A DNA stretch of 27,857 bases from a virus (taxonomy: Duplodnaviria; Heunggongvirae; Uroviricota; Caudoviricetes), in the IMG/VR virus record IMGVR_UViG_2737471861_000021; one strand, given 5' to 3'. Both the position numbers and the translations under genes were made by a program. Under the pieces are notes generated by a model, which was not told the origin of the DNA, made no database searches, and was given only the letters and a program-made list of their open reading frames with translations. Positions 879 to 26,590 of the stretch are shown here, in pieces; position 1 is the first letter of the stretch; every line of letters begins with the position of its first letter.

Positions 879-1209
879 ATCAGCAGCAGAGCGCAAAGCC
901 GCTCAGAGAGCCAGACAAGCTGCATCTGGTGTGCGTAAGCTGGAAATTGTGCTTGATGCTCAGGAAATTGAAATGCTGGAGCGTAACTGTGCCACGCGTC
1001 GCCCCGGGCGTGCGCCTTACGAATTTGGTGAGTATATAGCGTTACTGATCCGCCAAGATGATGCACGCGTGCACGGGCGTATAAAATCGATCAGCAGAAA
1101 ACGTTGCGGTAAGTGCGGCGAGAGAGTTCCAGTTAATTCATGTCCGTGTAATGGTGACTCACAATGCTGGGTGACTAAAGGCTGGCATGAAACGAAATTA
1201 ATAGTGTGA
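871..1209 (+). CDS. Small basic Cys-rich (putative zinc-finger) protein; candidate regulator
   Basis: 112-aa ORF with a basic N-terminus ([15 protein letters not shown]) and a C-terminal Cys cluster ([21 protein letters not shown]). Last gene before the terminase operon; its stop codon lies inside palindrome copy 1. Confidence 0.5.
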
Positions 1210-1218
1210 CATGTCACG
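1205..1218. repeat. Palindrome TGTGACATGTCACG, copy 1 of 3
   Basis: Read directly from the sequence; overlaps the TGA stop of the 871..1209 gene. Other copies at 3506..3519 and 20739..20752. Confidence 0.7.
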
Positions 1219-1327: not shown

Positions 1328-1960
1328 ATGATGCCTGCTGAACCTAAAACCTATAAACGCAAATCAACGCAATTTAAGCCGCTCACAGCAATGCAGGAGG
1401 CTTATTGCCAGTCATACATCAAAACGCCTGAAAACCAGACTCAGGCAGCGATTAACGCAGGATTCTCCCCAAATACAGCGGCAGTTAAAGCCAGTGTCAT
1501 GATGCGCGATGAACGCATTCAAAAACGGATTGCCGAGTTGATGGAGGAGCGCAACAAGCGCCTGCGCGTCAGTGCTGATTATGTCCTGCTGCGCCTGGTG
1601 GAAATCGACCAGATGGACGTGCTGGATATCCTGAACGATGACGGCGGGATGAAGCCGATCGCTGAATGGCCGAAGGTCTGGCGTACCTCTCTCAGTGCTA
1701 TGGATATCGCTACCATCAAGACGACCCAGGCTTCTCTGCAAAAAGAGAATGGCGAGGCGGATCTCTCTGTTGAGGATGTCGAGCATATCCTGAAGAAGGT
1801 GAAATGGCCCGACAAGGTGAAAAACCTCGAGCTCATCGGTAAGCACGTCGACGTTAACGCGTTCAAAGAGCGCCTGGATGTTAATGTGAATGTGACAATT
1901 GCTGATCGCATAGCGGCAGCCAGGAAGCGACTCAAAGAACGTCAGGATGGTAATCAGTGA
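1328..1960 (+). CDS. Terminase small subunit (Terminase_2-like)
   Basis: Internal Met start chosen downstream of the terminator hairpin (track ORF 1250..1960). The 'KPLTAMQEAYCQSYIKTPENQTQAAINAGFSPNTAAVKA' region looks like small-terminase HTH proteins (recollection). Stop overlaps the large-terminase GTG start. Confidence 0.6.
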   Translation: MMPAEPKTYKRKSTQFKPLTAMQEAYCQSYIKTPENQTQAAINAGFSPNTAAVKASVMMRDERIQKRIAELMEERNKRLRVSADYVLLRLVEIDQMDVLDILNDDGGMKPIAEWPKVWRTSLSAMDIATIKTTQASLQKENGEADLSVEDVEHILKKVKWPDKVKNLELIGKHVDVNAFKERLDVNVNVTIADRIAAARKRLKERQDGNQ

Positions 1961-3432
1961 CAGATGCAGCGTTATCTCCTGAAGAGCAGTTAATCGAAGA
2001 TATTGCAGGGTTCACTCACGATCCGCTTGGCTATGCCCTCTATGCGTTCCCTTGGGGGGAAGAGGGGACTGAACTGGCACATGCTACCGGTCCACGTCAG
2101 TGGCAGGCCGATGCGTTCCGAGAGATACGTGATCACCTGCAGAATCCAGAGACGCGCTATCAGCCGCTTATGCTGGCACGCGCTTCTGGTCACGGTATTG
2201 GTAAATCCGCATTCATCTCAATGCTGATCAACTGGGGCATGTCCACTTGCGAGGATTGTAAGGTCGTGGTGACCGCCAACACCGACAACCAGCTACGAAC
2301 GAAGACCTGGCCGGAAATTATCAAGTGGTCGAACCTTGCCATCACGAAAGACTGGTTTACCTGTACCGCTACCGCGATGTACAGCAATGATCCTGGGCAC
2401 GACAAGCGGTGGCGAGCTGACGCAATCCCCTGGTCTGAGCACAACACTGAGGCATTCGCCGGACTACACAACGAGCGCAAACGCATCATCGTGGTATTCG
2501 ATGAAGCGTCGAACATTGCGGATCTGGTGTGGGAAGTTGCTGAGGGGGCGCTAACGGACGAAGACACTGAGATTATCTGGGTGGCGTTCGGAAACCCTAC
2601 ACGTAACACCGGGCGTTTCCGCGAATGTTTCCGCAAATATAAACACCGCTGGAAAACTGCGCAGATTGACAGCCGGACGGTGGAAGGCACCAACAAACAG
2701 CAGTTGCAGAAATGGGTTGATGACTACGGGGAAGACAGCGACTTCGTTAAAATCCGTGTGCGCGGCATATTCCCGGATGCATCTGAATTGCAGTTTATCC
2801 CTACCGGACTTACTGACGAGGCAATGAAACGGGTGGTCACCGCTGCGCAGGTGGCGCATGCTCCGGTGATAATCGGTGTTGACCCGGCATATTCAGGCGT
2901 TGATGACGCGGTGATATACCTGCGGCAGGGGCTACACAGTAAGGTGCTGTGGACTGGCAACAAGACTACCGACGATCTGATTATGGCGAAGCGTATCGCT
3001 GACTTTGAAGACCAGTATCAGGCTGACGCGGTGTTCATCGACTTCGGTTACGGAACAGGTTTGAAGTCAATCGGTGATGGCTGGGGACGTACATGGCAAC
3101 TTGTTCCGTTCGGCGGTGCGTCCACCGATCCCCAGATGCTCAACAAGCGCGGCGAGATGTTCAACTCATGCAAGACATGGCTGAGGCTGGGCGGCATGCT
3201 TGATGACCAGGAAACAGCGGACGACCTGTCGGCGGCAGAGTACAAAGTTCGAGTGGACGGTAAAATCGTTATCGAACCGAAGGAAGATATCAAGGAGCGG
3301 CTTGGGCGTTCTCCTGGTAAAGGCGATGCGCTATTGCTGACGTTTGCCTTCCCTGTGTCGAAGCGTCTGCGAATTCCAGGTCAGCAGAACCAGCAAGGCA
3401 AGGCCATTACAGATTACGATCCCTATGCTTAA
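1957..3432 (+). CDS. Terminase large subunit
   Basis: 491-aa ORF immediately after terS with a GTGA overlap. Size, position and an ATPase-like N-terminus followed by a nuclease-like C-terminus are typical of a large terminase. Confidence 0.8.
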   Translation: MTDAALSPEEQLIEDIAGFTHDPLGYALYAFPWGEEGTELAHATGPRQWQADAFREIRDHLQNPETRYQPLMLARASGHGIGKSAFISMLINWGMSTCEDCKVVVTANTDNQLRTKTWPEIIKWSNLAITKDWFTCTATAMYSNDPGHDKRWRADAIPWSEHNTEAFAGLHNERKRIIVVFDEASNIADLVWEVAEGALTDEDTEIIWVAFGNPTRNTGRFRECFRKYKHRWKTAQIDSRTVEGTNKQQLQKWVDDYGEDSDFVKIRVRGIFPDASELQFIPTGLTDEAMKRVVTAAQVAHAPVIIGVDPAYSGVDDAVIYLRQGLHSKVLWTGNKTTDDLIMAKRIADFEDQYQADAVFIDFGYGTGLKSIGDGWGRTWQLVPFGGASTDPQMLNKRGEMFNSCKTWLRLGGMLDDQETADDLSAAEYKVRVDGKIVIEPKEDIKERLGRSPGKGDALLLTFAFPVSKRLRIPGQQNQQGKAITDYDPYA

Positions 3433-3482: not shown

Positions 3483-3507
3483 AGCCAGCTCATAGGCTGG
3501 CTGTTTG
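3483..3507. terminator. Bidirectional terminator hairpin between convergent genes
   Basis: AGCCAGC-tcatag-GCTGGCT stem-loop flanked by an A-run upstream and GTTTG downstream. Sits between terL (+) and the convergent 123-aa gene (-). Confidence 0.5.
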
Positions 3508-3519
3508 TGACATGTCACG
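3506..3519. repeat. Palindrome TGTGACATGTCACG, copy 2 of 3
   Basis: Identical 14-mer to copy 1; 4 bp beyond the stop of the minus-strand 123-aa gene and abutting the terminator hairpin. Confidence 0.7.
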
Positions 3520-6497: not shown

Positions 6498-6790
6498 CAG
6501 ATTACGAAGACGATCAACTGAAAGAAGAAAACGACCGTAAGCAACGTGACATGGCACAGCGTGAAATTGATGACATTCGCTTTGTCATGAGCAGTGAACA
6601 GGGGCGTCGAGTTGTCTGGTCGGTGCTGGAGAAAGGCCGTGTGTTTTCCGCTATCTCGCCGATGGACGCTATGGCAATGGCATTTAATGAGGGGCAACGC
6701 AATCTGGCGCTGGAACTGTTTCAGCGCGTTATGGCGCATTGCCCTGAACAGTATTTGAAGATGGCCAAAGAGGCCAGTGAACAGGAGTGA
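6494..6790 (+). CDS. Small head-assembly-associated protein, function unknown
   Basis: 98-aa acidic ORF translationally coupled to both portal and scaffold genes. Confidence 0.5.
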   Translation: MTDYEDDQLKEENDRKQRDMAQREIDDIRFVMSSEQGRRVVWSVLEKGRVFSAISPMDAMAMAFNEGQRNLALELFQRVMAHCPEQYLKMAKEASEQE

Positions 6791-18107: not shown

Positions 18108-20582
18108 ATGAGACAGGAATGTATACAGGCGGTTCAGCAGGCGGCGCAGCGCATGTTAACGGCGCGAGAAATACAGAACATTGAAGACCGCATTTATCGA
18201 AATATGCGCTCCATTGCTCGTGATGACCCGATGTCGTGGCGACAACTTTCCGAATCAGATCGGCTATATCGAGCAGCACAATTGGCATCTGAAGAATTAC
18301 AGCGAGAAGCGGCATTAAAGAAACGTCGTGTGGCTCTCACTATAGCCGCGCGTCAGAGATTGGATAAATTTATCAATAGCTATCAAGGGGCTGATGGGAA
18401 ACTTGGCGCTCTTAACCGTACTATAGCTTTTAATGCAGACGGTAAATCTAATTTCCTCTCTGTTGAATCCAGAACAAAAGCCACCCGTGATTATGCATTG
18501 AGTCAATTGCAGGAGGCATTCGAAGCAGTTGATCCTCGCTTTTTTGGTCTGTTTGAAGATGAAGCGGGCGTACGTGACCTGGTATATGAAATGCGGGGGC
18601 AAAATACTGGCAATGCTAAAGCAAGAAAAGGTGCTAAGGCGTGGAGAGAAGTTACAGAGCTGCTGCGCCGCCGGTTTAATGATGCTGGTGGGGACATTGG
18701 CTATCTCGAAAACTGGGGGATCCCTCAACATCATTCTATGGAAAAGGTTGGGGCGGTATCAAAGGATAAGTGGGTTAACGATGTTATAGGTAAGCTGGAT
18801 CGCAAATATTATACCCGAGCCGATGGACAACTGATGAACGATGCCGAGTTGTCTGCATTTCTTGGAGAGGCTTATAACACGATCGCTACTGGTGGGCTGA
18901 ATAAGCTTACTGATACCGGAATGCGAATTTCCGGCGCACGTGCTAACCGTGGTAATGCATCACGACAGATACATTTCAAAGATGCTGATTCCTATCTCCA
19001 ATATCAACAACTTTATGGCGATCGCTCTCTATGGGAAATCATGGTCGGTCACCTGGAAGGTATCAGTAAAGATATTGCTCTGGTGGAAACATATGGTCCA
19101 AACCCCGATCATGTTTTCCGCTCCCTTCTTGATCAGGTTAAGGCAGAAACGGCAACAGCTAACCCGAGTAAAACCGGTAAAGTCGAGCGGCTGGCGAACA
19201 ACACAGAGAATCTGTACAACTTTATTTCCGGAAAGACACAGCCTGTAGCGAATCCGCACATCGCGCGATGGTCTGACAATATCCGCAACTGGCTGGTTGC
19301 CAGCAGACTCGGATCCGCGTTGCTGTCATCGTTCTCTGATCTTGGAACCATGTATCTGTCTGCGAAGGTGACCAACCTTCCGATGAACCAGTTATTCCGC
19401 AACCAGCTTGAAGCTATGGACCCAACGAACCGTACTGAGCTTGCGCGGGCGCGCCGCGCTGGTCTGGCGATGGAATCTCTACTTGGCAGCGTTAACCGCT
19501 GGGCGATGGATAATATGGGGCCGTCTGTGTCTCGTTGGGCTGCAACGGCGGTAATGCGTGCCAGTGGGCTTACAGCATGGTCAGATGCGCACAAGCGCGC
19601 CTATGGCGTAACCATGATGGGAAGCCTGGGAGAAGTAGTGTCACGGACACCAGACCTTCGTAGCCTCGATGACTCTGATTTTCGTATCCTGAAAAGCAAA
19701 GGGATTACTGACACAGACTGGAGCGTATGGAAGTTGGCGCAACAGGAGGACTGGGGGAACGGTAATAATACGATGCTGACACCGGAAAGCATTATGCGTA
19801 TCCCTGATTCAGCAGTTAAACATCTTGGTGAGCCTGAACGCGTGAAATTTGAGGCAATGCGTAAACTGCTCGGTGCCGTAACTGAAGAAGTTGATATGGC
19901 TGTTATTACACCGGGAGCACGTGAGCAACTGATAACCGGTTCTGGTATTCAGCGTGGAACATGGAAAGGTGAATTAACGAGAAGTGTTTTCCTGTTTAAA
20001 TCGTTCCCTATCTCGGTTGTTATGCGTCACTGGTCACGCGCTATGGGTATGCCGTCTGCTGGTGGGCGTGCGGCATATATTGCGACGTTTATTGCCAGTA
20101 CGACCATTCTTGGCGCTTTGTCGCAGCAACTTAACGACCTTGCGTCTGGTCGTAATCCTCGAGAGATGACAGGAGAAGATGCCGCAAAATTCTGGCTTGG
20201 TGCTCTACTGAAAGGTGGTGGCCTTGGCCTTTACGGTGATTTTTTGTTGTCAGATCACACGAGGTACGGAAGCGGTGCGCTGGCATCAATGCTTGGTCCG
20301 GTAGCCGGTCTGGTTGATGACGTAGTGAAGATAGCTCAGGGCATACCACTAAATGCTGTGGAAGGGAAGAACGAGCAGACTGGTGGTGATCTGGTGAAAC
20401 TTGGGAAAGGGCTGATGCCAGGTGCGAATCTCTGGTACTTGAAGGCAGCTCTTGATCACATGATCTTTAACCAGATGCAGGAGTATTTTTCACCAGGCTA
20501 TTTGCGTAAAATGGAGCAACGTTCGAAGAAAGAGTTTAACCAGACATACTGGTGGCGACCACAGGATGTCACTCCGCAATAA
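18108..20582 (+). CDS. Large internal core / ejection protein
   Basis: 824-aa ORF, last large gene of the core block, with hydrophobic segments near the C-terminus. Confidence 0.6.
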   Translation: MRQECIQAVQQAAQRMLTAREIQNIEDRIYRNMRSIARDDPMSWRQLSESDRLYRAAQLASEELQREAALKKRRVALTIAARQRLDKFINSYQGADGKLGALNRTIAFNADGKSNFLSVESRTKATRDYALSQLQEAFEAVDPRFFGLFEDEAGVRDLVYEMRGQNTGNAKARKGAKAWREVTELLRRRFNDAGGDIGYLENWGIPQHHSMEKVGAVSKDKWVNDVIGKLDRKYYTRADGQLMNDAELSAFLGEAYNTIATGGLNKLTDTGMRISGARANRGNASRQIHFKDADSYLQYQQLYGDRSLWEIMVGHLEGISKDIALVETYGPNPDHVFRSLLDQVKAETATANPSKTGKVERLANNTENLYNFISGKTQPVANPHIARWSDNIRNWLVASRLGSALLSSFSDLGTMYLSAKVTNLPMNQLFRNQLEAMDPTNRTELARARRAGLAMESLLGSVNRWAMDNMGPSVSRWAATAVMRASGLTAWSDAHKRAYGVTMMGSLGEVVSRTPDLRSLDDSDFRILKSKGITDTDWSVWKLAQQEDWGNGNNTMLTPESIMRIPDSAVKHLGEPERVKFEAMRKLLGAVTEEVDMAVITPGAREQLITGSGIQRGTWKGELTRSVFLFKSFPISVVMRHWSRAMGMPSAGGRAAYIATFIASTTILGALSQQLNDLASGRNPREMTGEDAAKFWLGALLKGGGLGLYGDFLLSDHTRYGSGALASMLGPVAGLVDDVVKIAQGIPLNAVEGKNEQTGGDLVKLGKGLMPGANLWYLKAALDHMIFNQMQEYFSPGYLRKMEQRSKKEFNQTYWWRPQDVTPQ

Positions 20583-20591
20583 GGATGAGAA

Positions 20592-20732
20592 ATGATTGCT
20601 TTTATTCTTGTTGTATTTGTGCTTGTTGCCCTTGGCGTTATGAATCGTAAATGTATCATTGAAGACGGTGAATTTGCTGTAGCAGTTGTTTTGATATTAT
20701 CTGGTGTAGCAGGGTACATAGGTTTGTCATAG
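20592..20732 (+). CDS. Small hydrophobic membrane protein (46 aa)
   Basis: Not in the ORF track (too short). ATG at 20592, nine nt after the upstream stop with an AAGGATGAG RBS. Translation MIAFILVVFVLVALGVMNRKCIIEDGEFAVAVVLILSGVAGYIGLS has two predicted TM segments. Confidence 0.4.
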   Translation: MIAFILVVFVLVALGVMNRKCIIEDGEFAVAVVLILSGVAGYIGLS

Positions 20733-20738
20733 CTTGAG

Positions 20739-20752
20739 TGTGACATGTCACA
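20739..20752. repeat. Palindrome TGTGACATGTCACA, copy 3 of 3 (perfect 14-bp palindrome)
   Basis: Seen directly; lies between the small membrane ORF stop and the GC hairpin. Confidence 0.7.
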
Positions 20753-20768
20753 GGCCGCTTTCGCGGCC
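20753..20768. terminator. GC-rich hairpin between convergent transcription units
   Basis: GGCCGC-TTTC-GCGGCC stem-loop between the + strand core operon and the minus-strand small gene; U-tract is weak. Confidence 0.35.
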
Positions 20769-20775
20769 CTTAAAT

Positions 20776-21033
20776 TTACCGGATTTGTTTTCGTAATTGT
20801 TCGGCACAATAGTCGAGATGTGTTTGCAGATCCTGCATAGACATCTGTGAGCTGGTGACGTAGTTAATCAGTGCAGTCAGTTCGGCAAGTGGGCCATCGA
20901 CATTAAATCCATCCTTATCGAGATCCCGGAGTAATTTCATCAAGTGCGATCCCTCCACCAGTGACCTGACGCCTCCCGGCGTGTGAATCCTTTCGGTAAA
21001 TCCGTCTTCCAGTGGATAGTGATACTGCTGCAT
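20776..21033 (-). CDS. Small SOS-regulated protein of unknown function (85 aa), reverse-oriented inside the tail module
   Basis: Internal ATG of track ORF 20776..21156 with a GGAGAA RBS. A LexA box lies 22-37 nt upstream of this start. Translation MQQYHYPLEDGFTERIHTPGGVRSLVEGSHLMKLLRDLDKDGFNVDGPLAELTALINYVTSSQMSMQDLQTHLDYCAEQLRKQIR. Confidence 0.5.
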   Translation of the reverse strand: MQQYHYPLEDGFTERIHTPGGVRSLVEGSHLMKLLRDLDKDGFNVDGPLAELTALINYVTSSQMSMQDLQTHLDYCAEQLRKQIR

Positions 21034-21054
21034 CTTATCTTCTCCATGCAATAA

Positions 21055-21070
21055 CTGTATATTTATACAG
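21055..21070 (-). promoter_or_regulatory. LexA (SOS) box
   Basis: CTGTATATTTATACAG is a perfect CTGT-N8-ACAG with an AT-rich spacer. The extended 20-mer AACTGTATATTTATACAGTA closely matches the E. coli consensus TACTGTATATATATACAGTA. It sits just upstream of the minus-strand small gene. Confidence 0.7.
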
Positions 21071-21228
21071 TAGCAAATAATTTGTTTGCTATCCAGCACG
21101 TTTTGCAAATTACCCGAAAGGTAATATCTATTCATATTCACAGTCTTTCTATCCATATGTGGTTTTTCAGGTAATAGAATAACCAGATATGCGGCGCAAC
21201 GGGTGCTGCGACTATCTGGAGATTTAAC

Positions 21229-23418
21229 ATGACGGTCTCAACCGAAGTTGACCACAACGAATACACAGGCAATGGCGTTACGACTTCATTCCCTTATACC
21301 TTTAGGGTTTTCAATGAATCTGATCTGGTAGTGCAGGTGGTTGACCTTGACGAAAATATCGCTGTACTGGCTCTTGATACTGATTACACTGTCACTGGGG
21401 CTGGAGGATATAACGGCGGTAATGTAATTCTGTCGAAGGCGTTAGCTAACGGTTACCAGATTTCTATATCACGAGAGCTCCCGGTTACGCAGGAAACTGA
21501 TTTGCGTAATCAGGGTAAGTTCTTTGCAGAAGTGCATGAGGATGCTTTTGATAAGCTAACGATGCTGATCCAGCAGGTTCGAAGTTGGTTCAGTTTGGCT
21601 CTGCGTAAGCCATCATTTGTTGCTAATTATTATGATGCCTTGAACAATTACATCCGCAATTTACGTGATCCTTCAAGACCTCAAGATGCAGCCACTAAAA
21701 ATTATGTTGATACACAGCTCAGTACTAGCCTCAGGTGCACATTGCGCGTTCAGGAGCAGATTCCGATACTTCCTGACGCTGCCTCCCGTGAAAACAAGAT
21801 GCTTGCTTTCGATAACAATGGTAACCCCATTGTTGTACTTCCTCCATCTGGCTCTGCTTCTGATGTATTGATCGAATTAGCTAAACCAGCAGGCGCAGGG
21901 ATGATTGGTACCAAATCAGGAGATACTGTTCAAGATACGTTGGATGAACTCAATCATAAATCAGGTTATGATAATTCTGATATTTCTTTGTATGGATATA
22001 TATATGGTAGTGGAGAGGACGCTAAGCCTTATGTTCTTGCAGCCATAGGTAAAACAGGGGTTGCGCATATCAGCGGTGATACCACATTATCAAGATTTGA
22101 CTGGCCCCAAGGTGCAAGGATTACCGGAAAAGCAACGATCACATACACAAGGCTACCAAACGTTCCATGTGAACTTGATAGTGAAATACCTGTAAACCAT
22201 TCACTAATGAAAGCTGTATATGTTCATGAGGTATTTGATATCTGCGATATGTTACAAATAAAAACAGCAGGATTTAATACTTTAATTCATTATGGTCAGG
22301 CATGGCGTGATGGTGGAGACATGGAAAAAGCATGTAACGCAGCGGAAGCAATAGGATTGCGTTTGATTTTGGGCGGGCCAATATACGGACAGACAGATAC
22401 GCCATCTTCAGAACTGGACGATAGAGATTGTGTTATAGGATATTATCTATTTGATGAACCTCAAAACCATTCTATATCGGCTTCTGCCCAGGCTACTAGA
22501 ATAAACGCGTTCAAGGCTTTCACTAAAAAGTCGCTATGTATAGCTGATAATGGCATCTTTGCTTTTGATTCACCTACTATTCCGTCAGGGTACGATGGTG
22601 TTGGCTACGATTACATATTCATTGACGCTTACGCATACGCTAATCGAGATTTCGCCACGAATAAAAGAGCGGCAGTGCTATGTTGGGCGGAAATGAAATA
22701 CAAATCCCCAAATTCTAAGCTGATCCCTTGCTTGGGTATGTTTAGCGAACCTTCTGAGTTTTCAGATAAGTCAAAGCAAATATCTTTTGCAAGGAAATTC
22801 TTTGGGATGGGGCCCGGTGATTATGCCGCCTTTGCTTGGGAGAGCAATCTTATTATTGGCACATTCAAAGACATAACTAATGATTCTGACTTTTATAATG
22901 AAGTTTTAAGTTATAATTGCATAACAGAACAAAAACCATACAAAACAGATGTTTATGTGTTTTACACAGATAGAATGGGTGGGGCTATGCAGTTGTACAA
23001 TGACAAGTACAGTTCTGCCGATGTCACACCATTCCAGACTATCAATGCTGGGAGCGCACAAGGTGAGCGTAACACCACATTCAAAAAGGGTGGTATCGCG
23101 GCAAGAAACACCGGAGGCGTGTTTGCTACGAGGATGAAGAACCACGGGTACGTGGCTGTTGAGCTGTATTATTTTAACGGTGCAGATACCGCAAATACTA
23201 CAGCATCAATAACAACTTGCATTGACGATTTTTACACAAACACCCCGCAGCTTACGTTCACGCTCTCAACTACACAAAACGCCTGGATAAACTCTGTGGA
23301 AACAACACCTAATCTCGGTGTTGGTATAAAGATTATCCCAAGCCAATCTTACCAATATAGGTGGAAATTCATATATGGTGGCATAGTTGATTGCTCATGG
23401 AGAGGTGATTCATTTTAA
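21229..23418 (+). CDS. Tailspike / receptor-binding protein
   Basis: 729-aa ORF with a GGAGA RBS. N-terminus 'MTVSTEVDHNEYTGNGVTTSFPYTFRVF...' matches what I recall of the epsilon15-family tailspike head-binding domain. The distal two-thirds is AT-rich and divergent. Confidence 0.8.
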   Translation: MTVSTEVDHNEYTGNGVTTSFPYTFRVFNESDLVVQVVDLDENIAVLALDTDYTVTGAGGYNGGNVILSKALANGYQISISRELPVTQETDLRNQGKFFAEVHEDAFDKLTMLIQQVRSWFSLALRKPSFVANYYDALNNYIRNLRDPSRPQDAATKNYVDTQLSTSLRCTLRVQEQIPILPDAASRENKMLAFDNNGNPIVVLPPSGSASDVLIELAKPAGAGMIGTKSGDTVQDTLDELNHKSGYDNSDISLYGYIYGSGEDAKPYVLAAIGKTGVAHISGDTTLSRFDWPQGARITGKATITYTRLPNVPCELDSEIPVNHSLMKAVYVHEVFDICDMLQIKTAGFNTLIHYGQAWRDGGDMEKACNAAEAIGLRLILGGPIYGQTDTPSSELDDRDCVIGYYLFDEPQNHSISASAQATRINAFKAFTKKSLCIADNGIFAFDSPTIPSGYDGVGYDYIFIDAYAYANRDFATNKRAAVLCWAEMKYKSPNSKLIPCLGMFSEPSEFSDKSKQISFARKFFGMGPGDYAAFAWESNLIIGTFKDITNDSDFYNEVLSYNCITEQKPYKTDVYVFYTDRMGGAMQLYNDKYSSADVTPFQTINAGSAQGERNTTFKKGGIAARNTGGVFATRMKNHGYVAVELYYFNGADTANTTASITTCIDDFYTNTPQLTFTLSTTQNAWINSVETTPNLGVGIKIIPSQSYQYRWKFIYGGIVDCSWRGDSF

Positions 23419-24585: not shown

Positions 24586-24777
24586 TTTTAGTTTCCATAT
24601 TATATTCCAGTATTAGCTGCATGCAGAACCATTTTCCTATGGACGGCAGCATTGTATCACCCAGGGGGTAATTTCGGTAGGGGTATTCTTAGGTAATACA
24701 TATCCATATATGGTTTATTGTGTATGATGTACTCACCAACTAAGGGGGTTCTTTATGCACATTAAACGGTGGTCATA

Positions 24778-25182
24778 ATGGCGCAAATGTTAACCACGGA
24801 AACTATAAATCAGGGTCTTAGCATGAGCGCGCTGATGTCTGTGTTCGCTGGAGTACCGCCAGAGGTGGCTTTAGGAGCTTTGGCTGGGGCGGTAATTTTT
24901 GTTACCTCAGCGGTAGAGTATCACATCCGTCGCCGGGTGCTCCTGTCGATGCTCAGCTTTCTTTGCGGCCTTCTCTTTTACAAACCAGCAGCATCAATTC
25001 TTATCGGCATAGCCAGCCTGATCCCTACCATCACGCAGGACTCTTTTGAAAAAGGGATTGTTTTCTCTGCAGGCGCATTCGTGTCAGCAATTGTCGCTGT
25101 GCGTATTGGTATATGGCTCTATCACCGTTCCGATAATCCACGCGAGTTAATTCCGGGGAGAAAAGACGATGGTAACGTATGA
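24778..25182 (+). CDS. Holin-like membrane protein (class I-like, 3-4 TM)
   Basis: ATG at 24778 (track ORF 24769..25182). Several hydrophobic segments and a charged C-terminus; first gene of the lysis cassette. Confidence 0.5.
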   Translation: MAQMLTTETINQGLSMSALMSVFAGVPPEVALGALAGAVIFVTSAVEYHIRRRVLLSMLSFLCGLLFYKPAASILIGIASLIPTITQDSFEKGIVFSAGAFVSAIVAVRIGIWLYHRSDNPRELIPGRKDDGNV

Positions 25183-25477
25183 GTTTTTTTTGCTTATCAC
25201 CAATGCAGTTATTTGCACTGGCATAGCAATTCGCGTTGTCACATTCCGGCGTAACGGCTCTCAACACCGAAGGTGGGGAGGATGGCTTGCTTATTTCCTG
25301 ATTGTTGCTGCGGCCAGTATTCCTGTTCGTGTCGCCTATGCAATCTGGTTACGTACGCCAATGGCTGTGGATTTATCTGAGGTCATTATCAACGCTGTCA
25401 TGCTAACTGCGGTTATTAAAACGCGCGGTAACGTCGTTCAAATTTTCAAAGTATCGAGGTCTAAACATGGAGATTAA
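25169..25477 (+). CDS. Second small membrane protein of the lysis cassette (holin or antiholin-like)
   Basis: 102 aa with about three TM segments; overlaps the upstream gene and precedes the endolysin. Confidence 0.45.
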
Positions 25478-26096
25478 ACAATTCCAGCGAGCTGCTGGTA
25501 TCAGTGAGTCACTGGCCGCACGCTGGTTCTCGCATATAACTTCTGCGATGAAAGAGTTTGGTATCAGCAAACCAGAAGATCAGGCTATGTTTATTGCTCA
25601 GGTCGGGCATGAGTCTGGAGGCTTCACCCGGTTGCAGGAGAATTTCAACTACAGCGTCAGCGGACTGGCTAACTTTGTTCGGGCTGGGCGTCTCACTCAG
25701 GGACAGGCCAACGCATTGGGGCGACGCGCAGGCGAACCACCATTGCCACTTGAGCGCCAGCGCGCGATCGCAAATCTGGTATACAGCAAACGCATGGGGA
25801 ACAATGCCCCTGGTGATGGCTGGAATTACCGAGGGCGCGGACTTATCCAGATTACCGGTTTGAATAACTATCGTGATTGCGGAAACGGTCTGAAGGTTGA
25901 CCTGCTGGAGAGCCCTGAACTGCTGGCGCAGGACGAATATGCGGCTCGTAGCGCGGCGTGGTTCTTCGCCAGCAAAGGATGCATGAAGTATACCGGCGAT
26001 ATTGCACGTGTAACTCTGATTATCAATGGTGGCCGGAACGGCATCGACGACCGGCGAGCGCGGTACATCACTGCCAGTAAGGTGCTGGCGGTATGA
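25467..26096 (+). CDS. Endolysin, glycoside hydrolase family 19 (chitinase-like) type
   Basis: 209 aa. '[12 protein letters not shown]', '[12 protein letters not shown]' and '[12 protein letters not shown]' are GH19 endolysin signatures; from memory it is very close to the Salmonella phage SPN1S endolysin. Confidence 0.9.
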
Positions 26097-26590
26097 TCTG
26101 GGCATTCGTAAAAGCATACTGGAAACAGTTGCTTATCGTGGCAGTGCTTGCTGTTCTGGTCATATCAGGAGTGGTTGCCTGGAATATACACGGCAGTCGC
26201 CAGTACGATGCCGGGTATGCTCAGGCGAAGGAAGATCAGAAACAGGCTGATGATAAGTTAAGGTCACAGCGTGAGCAGGAGAAAACACAAATTGAACGTG
26301 AAGCACAATCCCGTATCGATGCGGCGCGTGCTGATGCTGAGTATGCTAATTCCGCTGCTGACAGCATGCGCGCCGAGCTTGACAAAACCAGGCGGCTCGC
26401 CGAACACTATACCGGATCTTTCCCCCCTGGCACGCCAGCCAGCAAGGTCATCGGTGTGCTCGCCGACATGCTTGAAGAAAGCAACCGAGTTTACAACGCA
26501 ACAGCAGCTGAGGCTGAAAAGTATCGTATCGCAGGGGAATTCTGCGAGCAGCAATACGATTCACTGAAGAAGCAAAAATCGTGGCACTGA
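26093..26590 (+). CDS. Rz: i-spanin (Rz-like)
   Basis: 165 aa with an N-terminal TM helix ([18 protein letters not shown]) and a charged coiled-coil-like periplasmic domain; directly follows the endolysin with an ATGA overlap. Confidence 0.7.
26319..26567 (+). CDS. Rz1: o-spanin lipoprotein (Rz1-like), embedded in the +1 frame of Rz
   Basis: Internal ATG of track ORF 26271..26567. Signal peptide [17 protein letters not shown] with an LTAC lipobox, followed by a Pro-rich mature region. Lies entirely within Rz in a different frame. Confidence 0.6.
   Translation: MRRVLMLSMLIPLLTACAPSLTKPGGSPNTIPDLSPLARQPARSSVCSPTCLKKATEFTTQQQLRLKSIVSQGNSASSNTIH

Follow-up and report, generated by a model that had tools for sequence, protein, structure and literature searches.

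The small open reading frame that follows the gp17-like gene in this prophage is, judged by its pattern of conservation, a genuine gene under purifying selection, and it stands in a slot where otherwise near-identical phages exchange unrelated genes for small envelope proteins. The gene and the prediction of two transmembrane helices for its product are already public in GenBank, RefSeq, and PHROGs; the analysis of the cassettes and the hairpin that may couple its translation to that of the preceding gene are modest additions to this knowledge. Taken as a whole, the statement that this catalogued gene is expressed late, is translationally coupled, and encodes an accessory inner-membrane protein acting in superinfection exclusion or interference with DNA entry is our preferred but tentative reading, which we hold at somewhat less than an even chance.

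The window (the whole stretch of 27,857 nucleotides analysed here) is an E. coli prophage of the phiV10/epsilon15 type, genus Uetakevirus. Between positions 20300 and 21300 it shares 96% identity with Escherichia phage vB_EcoP_PAS61 and about 80% with the Salmonella phages SPN1S and SPC32H. The upstream gene encodes a protein of 824 residues, of which the C-terminal 424 share 99.5% identity with PhiV10p20 and about 30% with gp17 of epsilon15 and of BcepC6B; PMC4819975 counts epsilon15 gp17 among the homologues of the T7-type internal virion protein IVP-D. Its stop codon (TAA, 20580-20582) and the start codon of the small ORF are separated by nine bases, GGATGAGAA, and the two genes share one reading frame, with TAA GGA TGA GAA between them. 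The layout is exactly as the initial annotation had described it, with a proper ribosome-binding site, a start nine nucleotides after the stop of the 824-aa gene, and a palindrome and hairpin downstream (Table 1). On the right, the cassette is bounded by a convergent gp19-like gene, which lies outside the unit of the small gene. It is an ORF of 126 codons, of which phrog_450 matches only residues 42-126; relatives annotate 258 nucleotides, and its true start is probably an internal methionine (MQQYHYPLEDG...), giving about 85 residues. The C-terminal part of this ORF also shows a weak match to an anti-repressor PHROG. Further downstream follow the tailspike, an O-acetyltransferase, and a lysis cassette, the last with the same components as annotated in phiV10.

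Table 1. Coordinates of the features in and around the 46-aa gene.
Feature	Position in window	Strand	Remarks
824-aa gp17-like internal virion (ejection) protein gene	18108..20582	+	phrog_684 'virion structural protein', E=0
Predicted mRNA hairpin	20576..20614	+	-13.4 kcal/mol, 15 bp
Hairpin 5' arm, GCAAUAAGGAUGAGA	20576-20590	+	covers the gp17-like stop codon and the Shine-Dalgarno sequence
Hairpin loop, 9 nt	20591-20599	+	contains the AUG of the 46-aa ORF
Hairpin 3' arm, UUUUAUUCUUGUUGU	20600-20614	+	codons 4-8 of the 46-aa ORF
Shine-Dalgarno core AAGGA	20581-20585	+	6 nt 5' of the ATG; overlaps the last two bases of the gp17-like stop codon
46-aa ORF, predicted helical-hairpin membrane protein	20592..20732 (stop codon included)	+	ATG at 20592, TAG at 20730-20732; phrog_7892 member, PhiV10p21 orthologue
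Perfect 14-bp palindrome TGTGACATGTCACA	20739..20752	.	core GTGACATGTCAC at 20740-20751; 3' boundary of the cassette
GC-rich hairpin GGCCGC-TTTC-GCGGCC	20753..20768	+	intrinsic-terminator-like, end of the structural operon; terminator scan
Convergent gp19-like gene	20776..21156	-	right boundary of the cassette; ORF and phrog_450
Tailspike	21229-23418		
Lysis cassette	24769-26590		holin phrog_198, holin phrog_217, endolysin, Rz spanin

The product of the gene is MIAFILVVFVLVALGVMNRKCIIEDGEFAVAVVLILSGVAGYIGLS. Hydropathy analysis delineates two hydrophobic stretches, residues 1-17 and 28-46, around the loop NRKCIIEDGE (GRAVY 1.83), and AlphaFold2, given an alignment of 25 sequences, models helices at residues 2-19 and 25-45 with a mean pLDDT of 92; the protein is thus confidently predicted to be a helical hairpin, for which we infer an inner-membrane location. 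The C-terminus, ...GYIGLS, is without charged residues, and a dual-start motif is also absent. Hydropathy, model, and the prediction of two transmembrane helices by the annotators of phiV10 all agree with the short hydrophobic two-helix protein originally proposed, which had, however, been called unannotated, wrongly. In phiV10 the gene is PhiV10p21 (YP_512275.1), described as a putative integral membrane protein with two predicted transmembrane helices and followed by a predicted terminator; in SPN1S it is SPN1S_0020, a 'putative membrane protein'; and further annotations are found in phage PAS61 (WMX19000.1) and, in RefSeq, in E. coli JML285 (WP_040092269.1). The exact protein occurs on 241 contigs, where it is labelled 'hypothetical protein', and its entire length is covered by a match to phrog_7892 (function unknown), residues 1-46 against positions 1-46 of a 46-position profile, with E = 2.5e-31. 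These catalogued forms show no material difference from the protein described here: they have about 90% identity over 46 residues, with a few conservative substitutions only (in the F9/V10 region and at E24), they start 9-10 nucleotides after a gp17-like gene, and PhiV10p21 and SPN1S_0020 are followed by the same palindrome and terminator.

Beyond this family, searches gave no hint of function. When 1.84 billion representative proteins were searched with a profile, only six clusters came back, of 32-48 residues and all belonging to one narrow family, so that there are no remote relatives to lend a function; searches of Pfam, NCBIfam, and PADLOC with the protein gave only sub-threshold noise, the sole Pfam match, DUF5367, lying below threshold. 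The literature covered, on the phiV10 membrane protein, epsilon15 gp18, Uetakevirus superinfection, and phiV10 reporters (the genome and proteome papers of epsilon15 not being part of it), holds nothing on the gene; in the phiV10 reporter phage it was recET that was replaced, and not this gene.

The existence of a short ORF proves nothing in itself, since the 5 kb around it hold 59 ORFs of at least 25 codons; it is conservation that argues for a gene. Homologues of the protein form 48 clusters of 76-91% identity in E. coli, Salmonella, Citrobacter, and Hafnia, and in prophages of all four the ORF is intact and in the same position, in most cases directly 3' of the 824-aa gene and before the palindrome and terminator (the exception, contig L102, is described below). 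Among 19 distinct nucleotide alleles, gathered from phage records, IMG/VR contigs, and assemblies of the same four genera, the Nei-Gojobori method yields pS 0.283, pN 0.077, and a dN/dS of 0.23 in the frame of the ORF, as against 1.16 and 2.05 in the remaining two forward frames. The check on conservation and coding constraint in related prophages that the initial annotation had proposed thus comes out in favour of the gene. The most conserved columns of the family are those of the loop and its flanks, with the short motif MNRK-G/C-II-E/D-DGEF. Even in the divergent allele L085, where the DNA is heavily changed, the hydrophobic first helix, the motif MNRKGIIDDGEF, and the second helix with GVAGY.G are kept.

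One allele departs from this picture. In four IMG/VR loci of the same cassette type (L041, L049, L064, and L069), an insertion of one nucleotide exchanges the last six residues (…GVARVHRFVIT, 48 residues in all); the palindrome carries a point change (GTGACATGCCAC), and the Shine-Dalgarno region, which is AAGGATG in the other loci of this type and GAGG in L085, is weakened to AAGGGTG. This allele may be a decaying copy.

How the gene is distributed becomes apparent from the sequence that follows the gp17-like stop codon in other genomes. In 54 of 318 complete E. coli genomes that contain the gp17-like 3' end, this end continues into the 46-aa ORF. In IMG/VR, 78 loci are informative, with C-terminal halves of gp17 that are 95-100% identical to that of the window; typed by the sequence after the stop, 30 carry the 46-aa gene (type A) and one a variant of it (type A-like), while 38 carry a 57-aa ORF with two transmembrane helices, a GTG or TTG start, and the same 9-nt spacing, together with a 98-aa protein with several transmembrane segments (type B). 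Eight further loci carry a small transmembrane ORF, apparently frameshifted, and a 126-aa lipoprotein (type C), and one carries the lipoprotein alone, nine nucleotides after the stop and with the same AAGGA (type D); this last type is common in Salmonella, and records of the lipoprotein P0078 come from 593 contigs. The GTGACATGTCAC palindrome, with the GGCCGC...GCGGCC hairpin behind it, closes nearly every cassette examined; in some the stop codon lies inside the palindrome, and in the 46-aa gene it lies 7 nt 5' of it. The last 100 residues of gp17 show no covariation with the type of cassette, the same variants (for example N755S) occurring across types A, B, and C. By this comparison the slot is a swappable cassette site for interchangeable genes of envelope proteins.

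Several of the alternative cassettes merit description in their own right. The 57-aa ORF of type B, which starts with GTG nine nucleotides after the gp17-like stop and has AAGGAAG as its Shine-Dalgarno sequence in E. coli 118UI (L004) and PD23 (L006; 2613-2786 in both), is apparently unannotated, although it is intact in 35 of the 38 type-B IMG/VR loci; RefSeq annotates only the downstream 98-aa gene and, in 118UI, a 144-aa fusion with a TTG start that results from an indel of one nucleotide. The 98-aa protein has a match to a holin family that is below the curated cut-off (E 0.027). In E. coli APEC O1 (L005, 2612-2776) and eight identical IMG/VR loci, the small ORF encodes a peptide of 41 residues with one transmembrane helix, with the sequence of a second hydrophobic helix carrying on in a different frame (...ESLLRAAAWFGFVVFGIVLFGRIIK), which suggests either a shared frameshift in a former two-helix gene or a programmed shift. 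The 126-aa lipoprotein (L086, L104) has the lipobox LVGC and conserved cysteines at 102 and 124 and is widespread at the slot in prophages of Salmonella, Klebsiella, Enterobacter, and Proteus; its AlphaFold2 model (pLDDT 84) resembles BamE/SmpA-OmlA weakly (Foldseek, E about 0.2 in the PDB). An attempt to approach the function of the slot through this lipoprotein was uninformative, its homologues being all 'hypothetical' and without a link to known exclusion lipoproteins, and searches of Pfam, NCBIfam, and PADLOC with the other cassette proteins yielded only sub-threshold noise.

In more distant phages the slot holds yet other genes, or none. Epsilon15 has gp18 (NP_848226.1, 64 residues) as the first gene after gp17, with an overlap of 4 nt; like the 46-aa protein it has two hydrophobic helices, and it is followed by the same GTGACATGTCAC palindrome, which here holds its TGA stop, and by a terminator, but it is unrelated in sequence and was not retrieved by the profile search, and the gp17 that it accompanies shares only about 30% identity. 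In Enterobacter phage Tyrion the slot is taken by an unrelated 103-aa protein with two transmembrane helices, and in Proteus prophages by a 99-aa protein, also with two, along with the lipoprotein. On contig L102, whose internal virion protein is about 25% identical to the gp17 of the window, a 45-aa member of the family follows a Tyrion-type gene for a 92-aa protein with two transmembrane helices, an arrangement which indicates that the family travels as a module. At least five unrelated hairpins with two transmembrane helices thus recur as the first gene of the slot, and at least six unrelated small envelope proteins occupy it altogether (hairpins of 46, 57, 64, and about 92-103 residues, the 98-aa multi-spanning protein, and the 126-aa lipoprotein with its weakly BamE-like fold). 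No gene is annotated in the slot of MPK9 and YeP6, where a gene on the reverse strand directly abuts gp17, or of BcepC6B and Ab31, where gp17 is followed by the tail fibre gene. Since it is swapped in near-identical phages and absent from distant ones with a gp17, the 46-aa gene is accessory and not part of the conserved ejection machinery.

The palindrome that closes the cassettes is itself a recurrent element of these genomes. Its core occurs in three exact copies in the window (1206-1217, 3507-3518, and 20740-20751), where 0.07 would be expected, with a further copy at one mismatch (6546-6557); phiV10 (L103) has copies at 2262-2273 and 19493-19504. Each GTGACATGTCAC copy adjoins a hairpin resembling an intrinsic terminator: one lies after the gene for a phrog_536 'transcriptional regulator', with the TGA stop of that gene inside the palindrome, one after a hairpin 3' of a 491-aa ORF (1957-3432) that corresponds in position to the large-terminase gene of phiV10, and one before the hairpin at the operon end. 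The sequence of the palindrome hardly changes even though the bases on either side do, and both epsilon15 and Tyrion retain it. It could serve as a protein-binding site involved in termination or antitermination, or as a recombination boundary at which cassettes are exchanged. Of the hairpin that follows, the stem is kept among relatives and the loop varies; the equivalent element is annotated as a terminator in phiV10, and its U-tract is weak in the window (CTTAAATTTA). In L085, the palindrome comes after a type-A gene of 48 codons and is followed not by the terminator but by AAGGAATATC-ATG and an ORF that starts MNKTALLLIALVPQVV..., which looks like a signal peptide; the palindrome can thus also separate two genes of a cassette.

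Translational coupling to the 824-aa gene, claimed from the outset, is plausible. At the junction, the mRNA is predicted to fold into a hairpin that buries the Shine-Dalgarno sequence in its stem and presents the AUG in its loop. The 15 base pairs constitute both the minimum-free-energy and the centroid structure, with z = -4.1 (-4.13) and none of 200 dinucleotide shuffles as stable, and the same pairing is predicted in most alleles of close relatives, from E. coli, Salmonella, Hafnia, and Citrobacter. On reaching the gp17-like UAA, a terminating ribosome would unwind the stem and expose the Shine-Dalgarno sequence. As the hairpin hides this sequence until ribosomes melt it, translation of the 46-aa gene appears to depend on completion of the gp17-like gene, a coupling that we infer from the folding. 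For the GAGG of L085, too, pairing is predicted; its partner is a downstream segment or the end of gp17, according to which stretch is folded. We considered whether sequestration is a universal feature of the slot and rejected this, as it is strong only in close relatives of type A and in type C; the divergent members L101 and L102, and some other cassette types, show it weakly or not at all.

Among the three roles suggested at the start, virion-associated pilot protein, superinfection exclusion, and holin-like peptide, our best guess is that superinfection exclusion, or else another accessory function in the envelope, fits best. The gene would be the last cistron of the operon for structural and ejection proteins, and hence a late gene; its product, a helical hairpin of 46 residues, would insert into the inner membrane, with the conserved short loop as the likely interaction surface, and would interfere there with DNA entry or formation of the ejection channel by incoming related phages. 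It is the exchange of unrelated small envelope proteins among near-identical temperate phages, next to the ejection genes, that favours exclusion, as this is the pattern of superinfection-exclusion genes. The closest parallel is P22 SieA, an inner-membrane protein that blocks the delivery of DNA via the ejection proteins and of which three sequence types occur, sharing less than 30% identity; mutations that escape SieA map to the ejection proteins gp16 and gp20 (PMC10883804). The sieA gene resembles the 46-aa gene in position, lying directly after the last ejection-protein gene (gene 16) and before mnt/arc/ant and the tailspike, and SieA and the slot proteins are alike as (for the latter, predicted) inner-membrane proteins with several unrelated alleles among related phages. 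SieA differs, however, in having 162-164 residues and three predicted transmembrane segments and in being encoded on the opposite strand with its own annotated promoter and expressed from the prophage, whereas the gene described here has 46 codons, runs in the direction of the late operon, and has no detected promoter; the two proteins show no sequence similarity (BLASTP E = 42), and the 46-aa protein matches no defence family of PADLOC. A comparison by description, and not by homology, can also be drawn to T4 Imm, which blocks DNA injection (PMC11436027). Imm and HK97 gp15 are likewise small phage-encoded membrane proteins whose action against incoming DNA takes place at the inner membrane, although Imm, unlike the 46-aa gene, belongs to the early/middle genes of a virulent phage, and HK97 gp15 is the product of a moron located within the tail operon and expressed from the prophage. 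In our promoter scans, no sigma-70-like site was found upstream of the 46-aa gene on the + strand or of the other cassettes, and promoter-like sites were no commoner than in shuffled sequences. With the gene co-oriented with the late operon and no promoter found, expression in lysogens, which classical exclusion needs, is unsupported; the protein may be made only late in infection and not in lysogens.

Much of the same evidence bears on other functions. Cassette variability and targeting of the envelope would be equally expected of a moron-type gene that serves not in exclusion but in modulating a host transporter, a sensor kinase, or envelope stress, as lysogenic conversion or as an aid late in infection. 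The region nearby carries O-antigen-modifying conversion genes, and the loop, as the most conserved part, suggests a specific protein partner; furthermore, of the hallmarks of morons, the gene has variable presence and a downstream terminator, though not its own promoter. The missing promoter for prophage expression speaks against such a role, as does the location of the slot, which stays with the ejection-gene cluster and is not scattered over the genome; searches of Pfam and NCBIfam, moreover, revealed no similarity to known small regulatory membrane proteins, and we consider this reading unlikely. A further candidate role is that of a helper of the ejection apparatus, either a pilot peptide in the virion or a membrane chaperone or anchor for assembly or insertion of the gp17-like protein. 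Adjacency and apparent coupling would keep the two products in step, and unrelated two-helix hairpins come first after the internal virion protein in epsilon15, Tyrion, types B and C, and the Proteus prophages; this recurrence could also reflect a general biophysical role that is linked to gp17 or to late infection. Phages with near-identical gp17, however, lack the 46-aa gene or have the lipoprotein alone, the cassette type is independent of the gp17 C-terminus, the gp17 homologues of BcepC6B, Ab31, MPK9, and YeP6 do without an annotated gene of this kind, and the L102 member is not adjacent to the gene of its internal virion protein. A peptide of such hydrophobicity is, furthermore, unlikely as a soluble component of the capsid. 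An obligatory pilot protein is thus improbable, as unrelated cassettes replace the gene, and we regard the helper reading in general as distinctly unlikely.

A factor in the timing of lysis, be it holin-, pinholin-, or antiholin-like, is very unlikely. The protein shares with class II holins and pinholins its small size, two transmembrane helices, and presumed late expression, and the 98-aa protein of the alternative cassette has the sub-threshold holin match noted above. The complete lysis cassette, however, lies 4 kb away and already provides two holin-family genes; the charged cytoplasmic tail and the dual start of such proteins are missing, there is no significant match to a holin family (DUF5367 being sub-threshold), and the gene can be replaced by that of a periplasmic lipoprotein. 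The proposal of a holin-like peptide consequently fares poorly. Finally, the peptide itself might be irrelevant, translation of the ORF serving only to affect the terminator, the palindrome, or the stability of the mRNA, as the closeness of the stop codon to the palindrome (and its location inside it in other cassettes) could indicate; or the coding unit might be an antisense ORF of 103 codons (20498-20809), whose frame is open in most close relatives with a dN/dS of 0.28. This is the least credible of the readings, hardly to be entertained given the strong constraint on the amino acids of the sense frame and the loop motif that is invariant in alleles with diverged DNA. The antisense ORF was rejected as a gene: stop codons break it in phiV10 and L085, it extends across the terminator and into the end of gp17, and its low ratio is a by-product of third codon positions shared with the sense frame.

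A more ambitious form of the exclusion reading, which we find rather doubtful, would see in the slot a hypervariable island and in its proteins a new class of late-expressed, translationally coupled exclusion factors aimed at the ejection channel, of which the 46-aa protein would be the smallest injection blocker known. Independently of this, the hairpin predicted to sequester the Shine-Dalgarno sequence would offer a tidy natural example of structural translational coupling. As a lead, the value of the locus lies in a compact and cleanly bounded slot at which closely related prophages swap small envelope proteins, the pattern expected of exclusion between phages; and if a peptide of 46 residues does block the entry of DNA, it would be a minimal tool for understanding how the ejection proteins of podoviruses cross the inner membrane.
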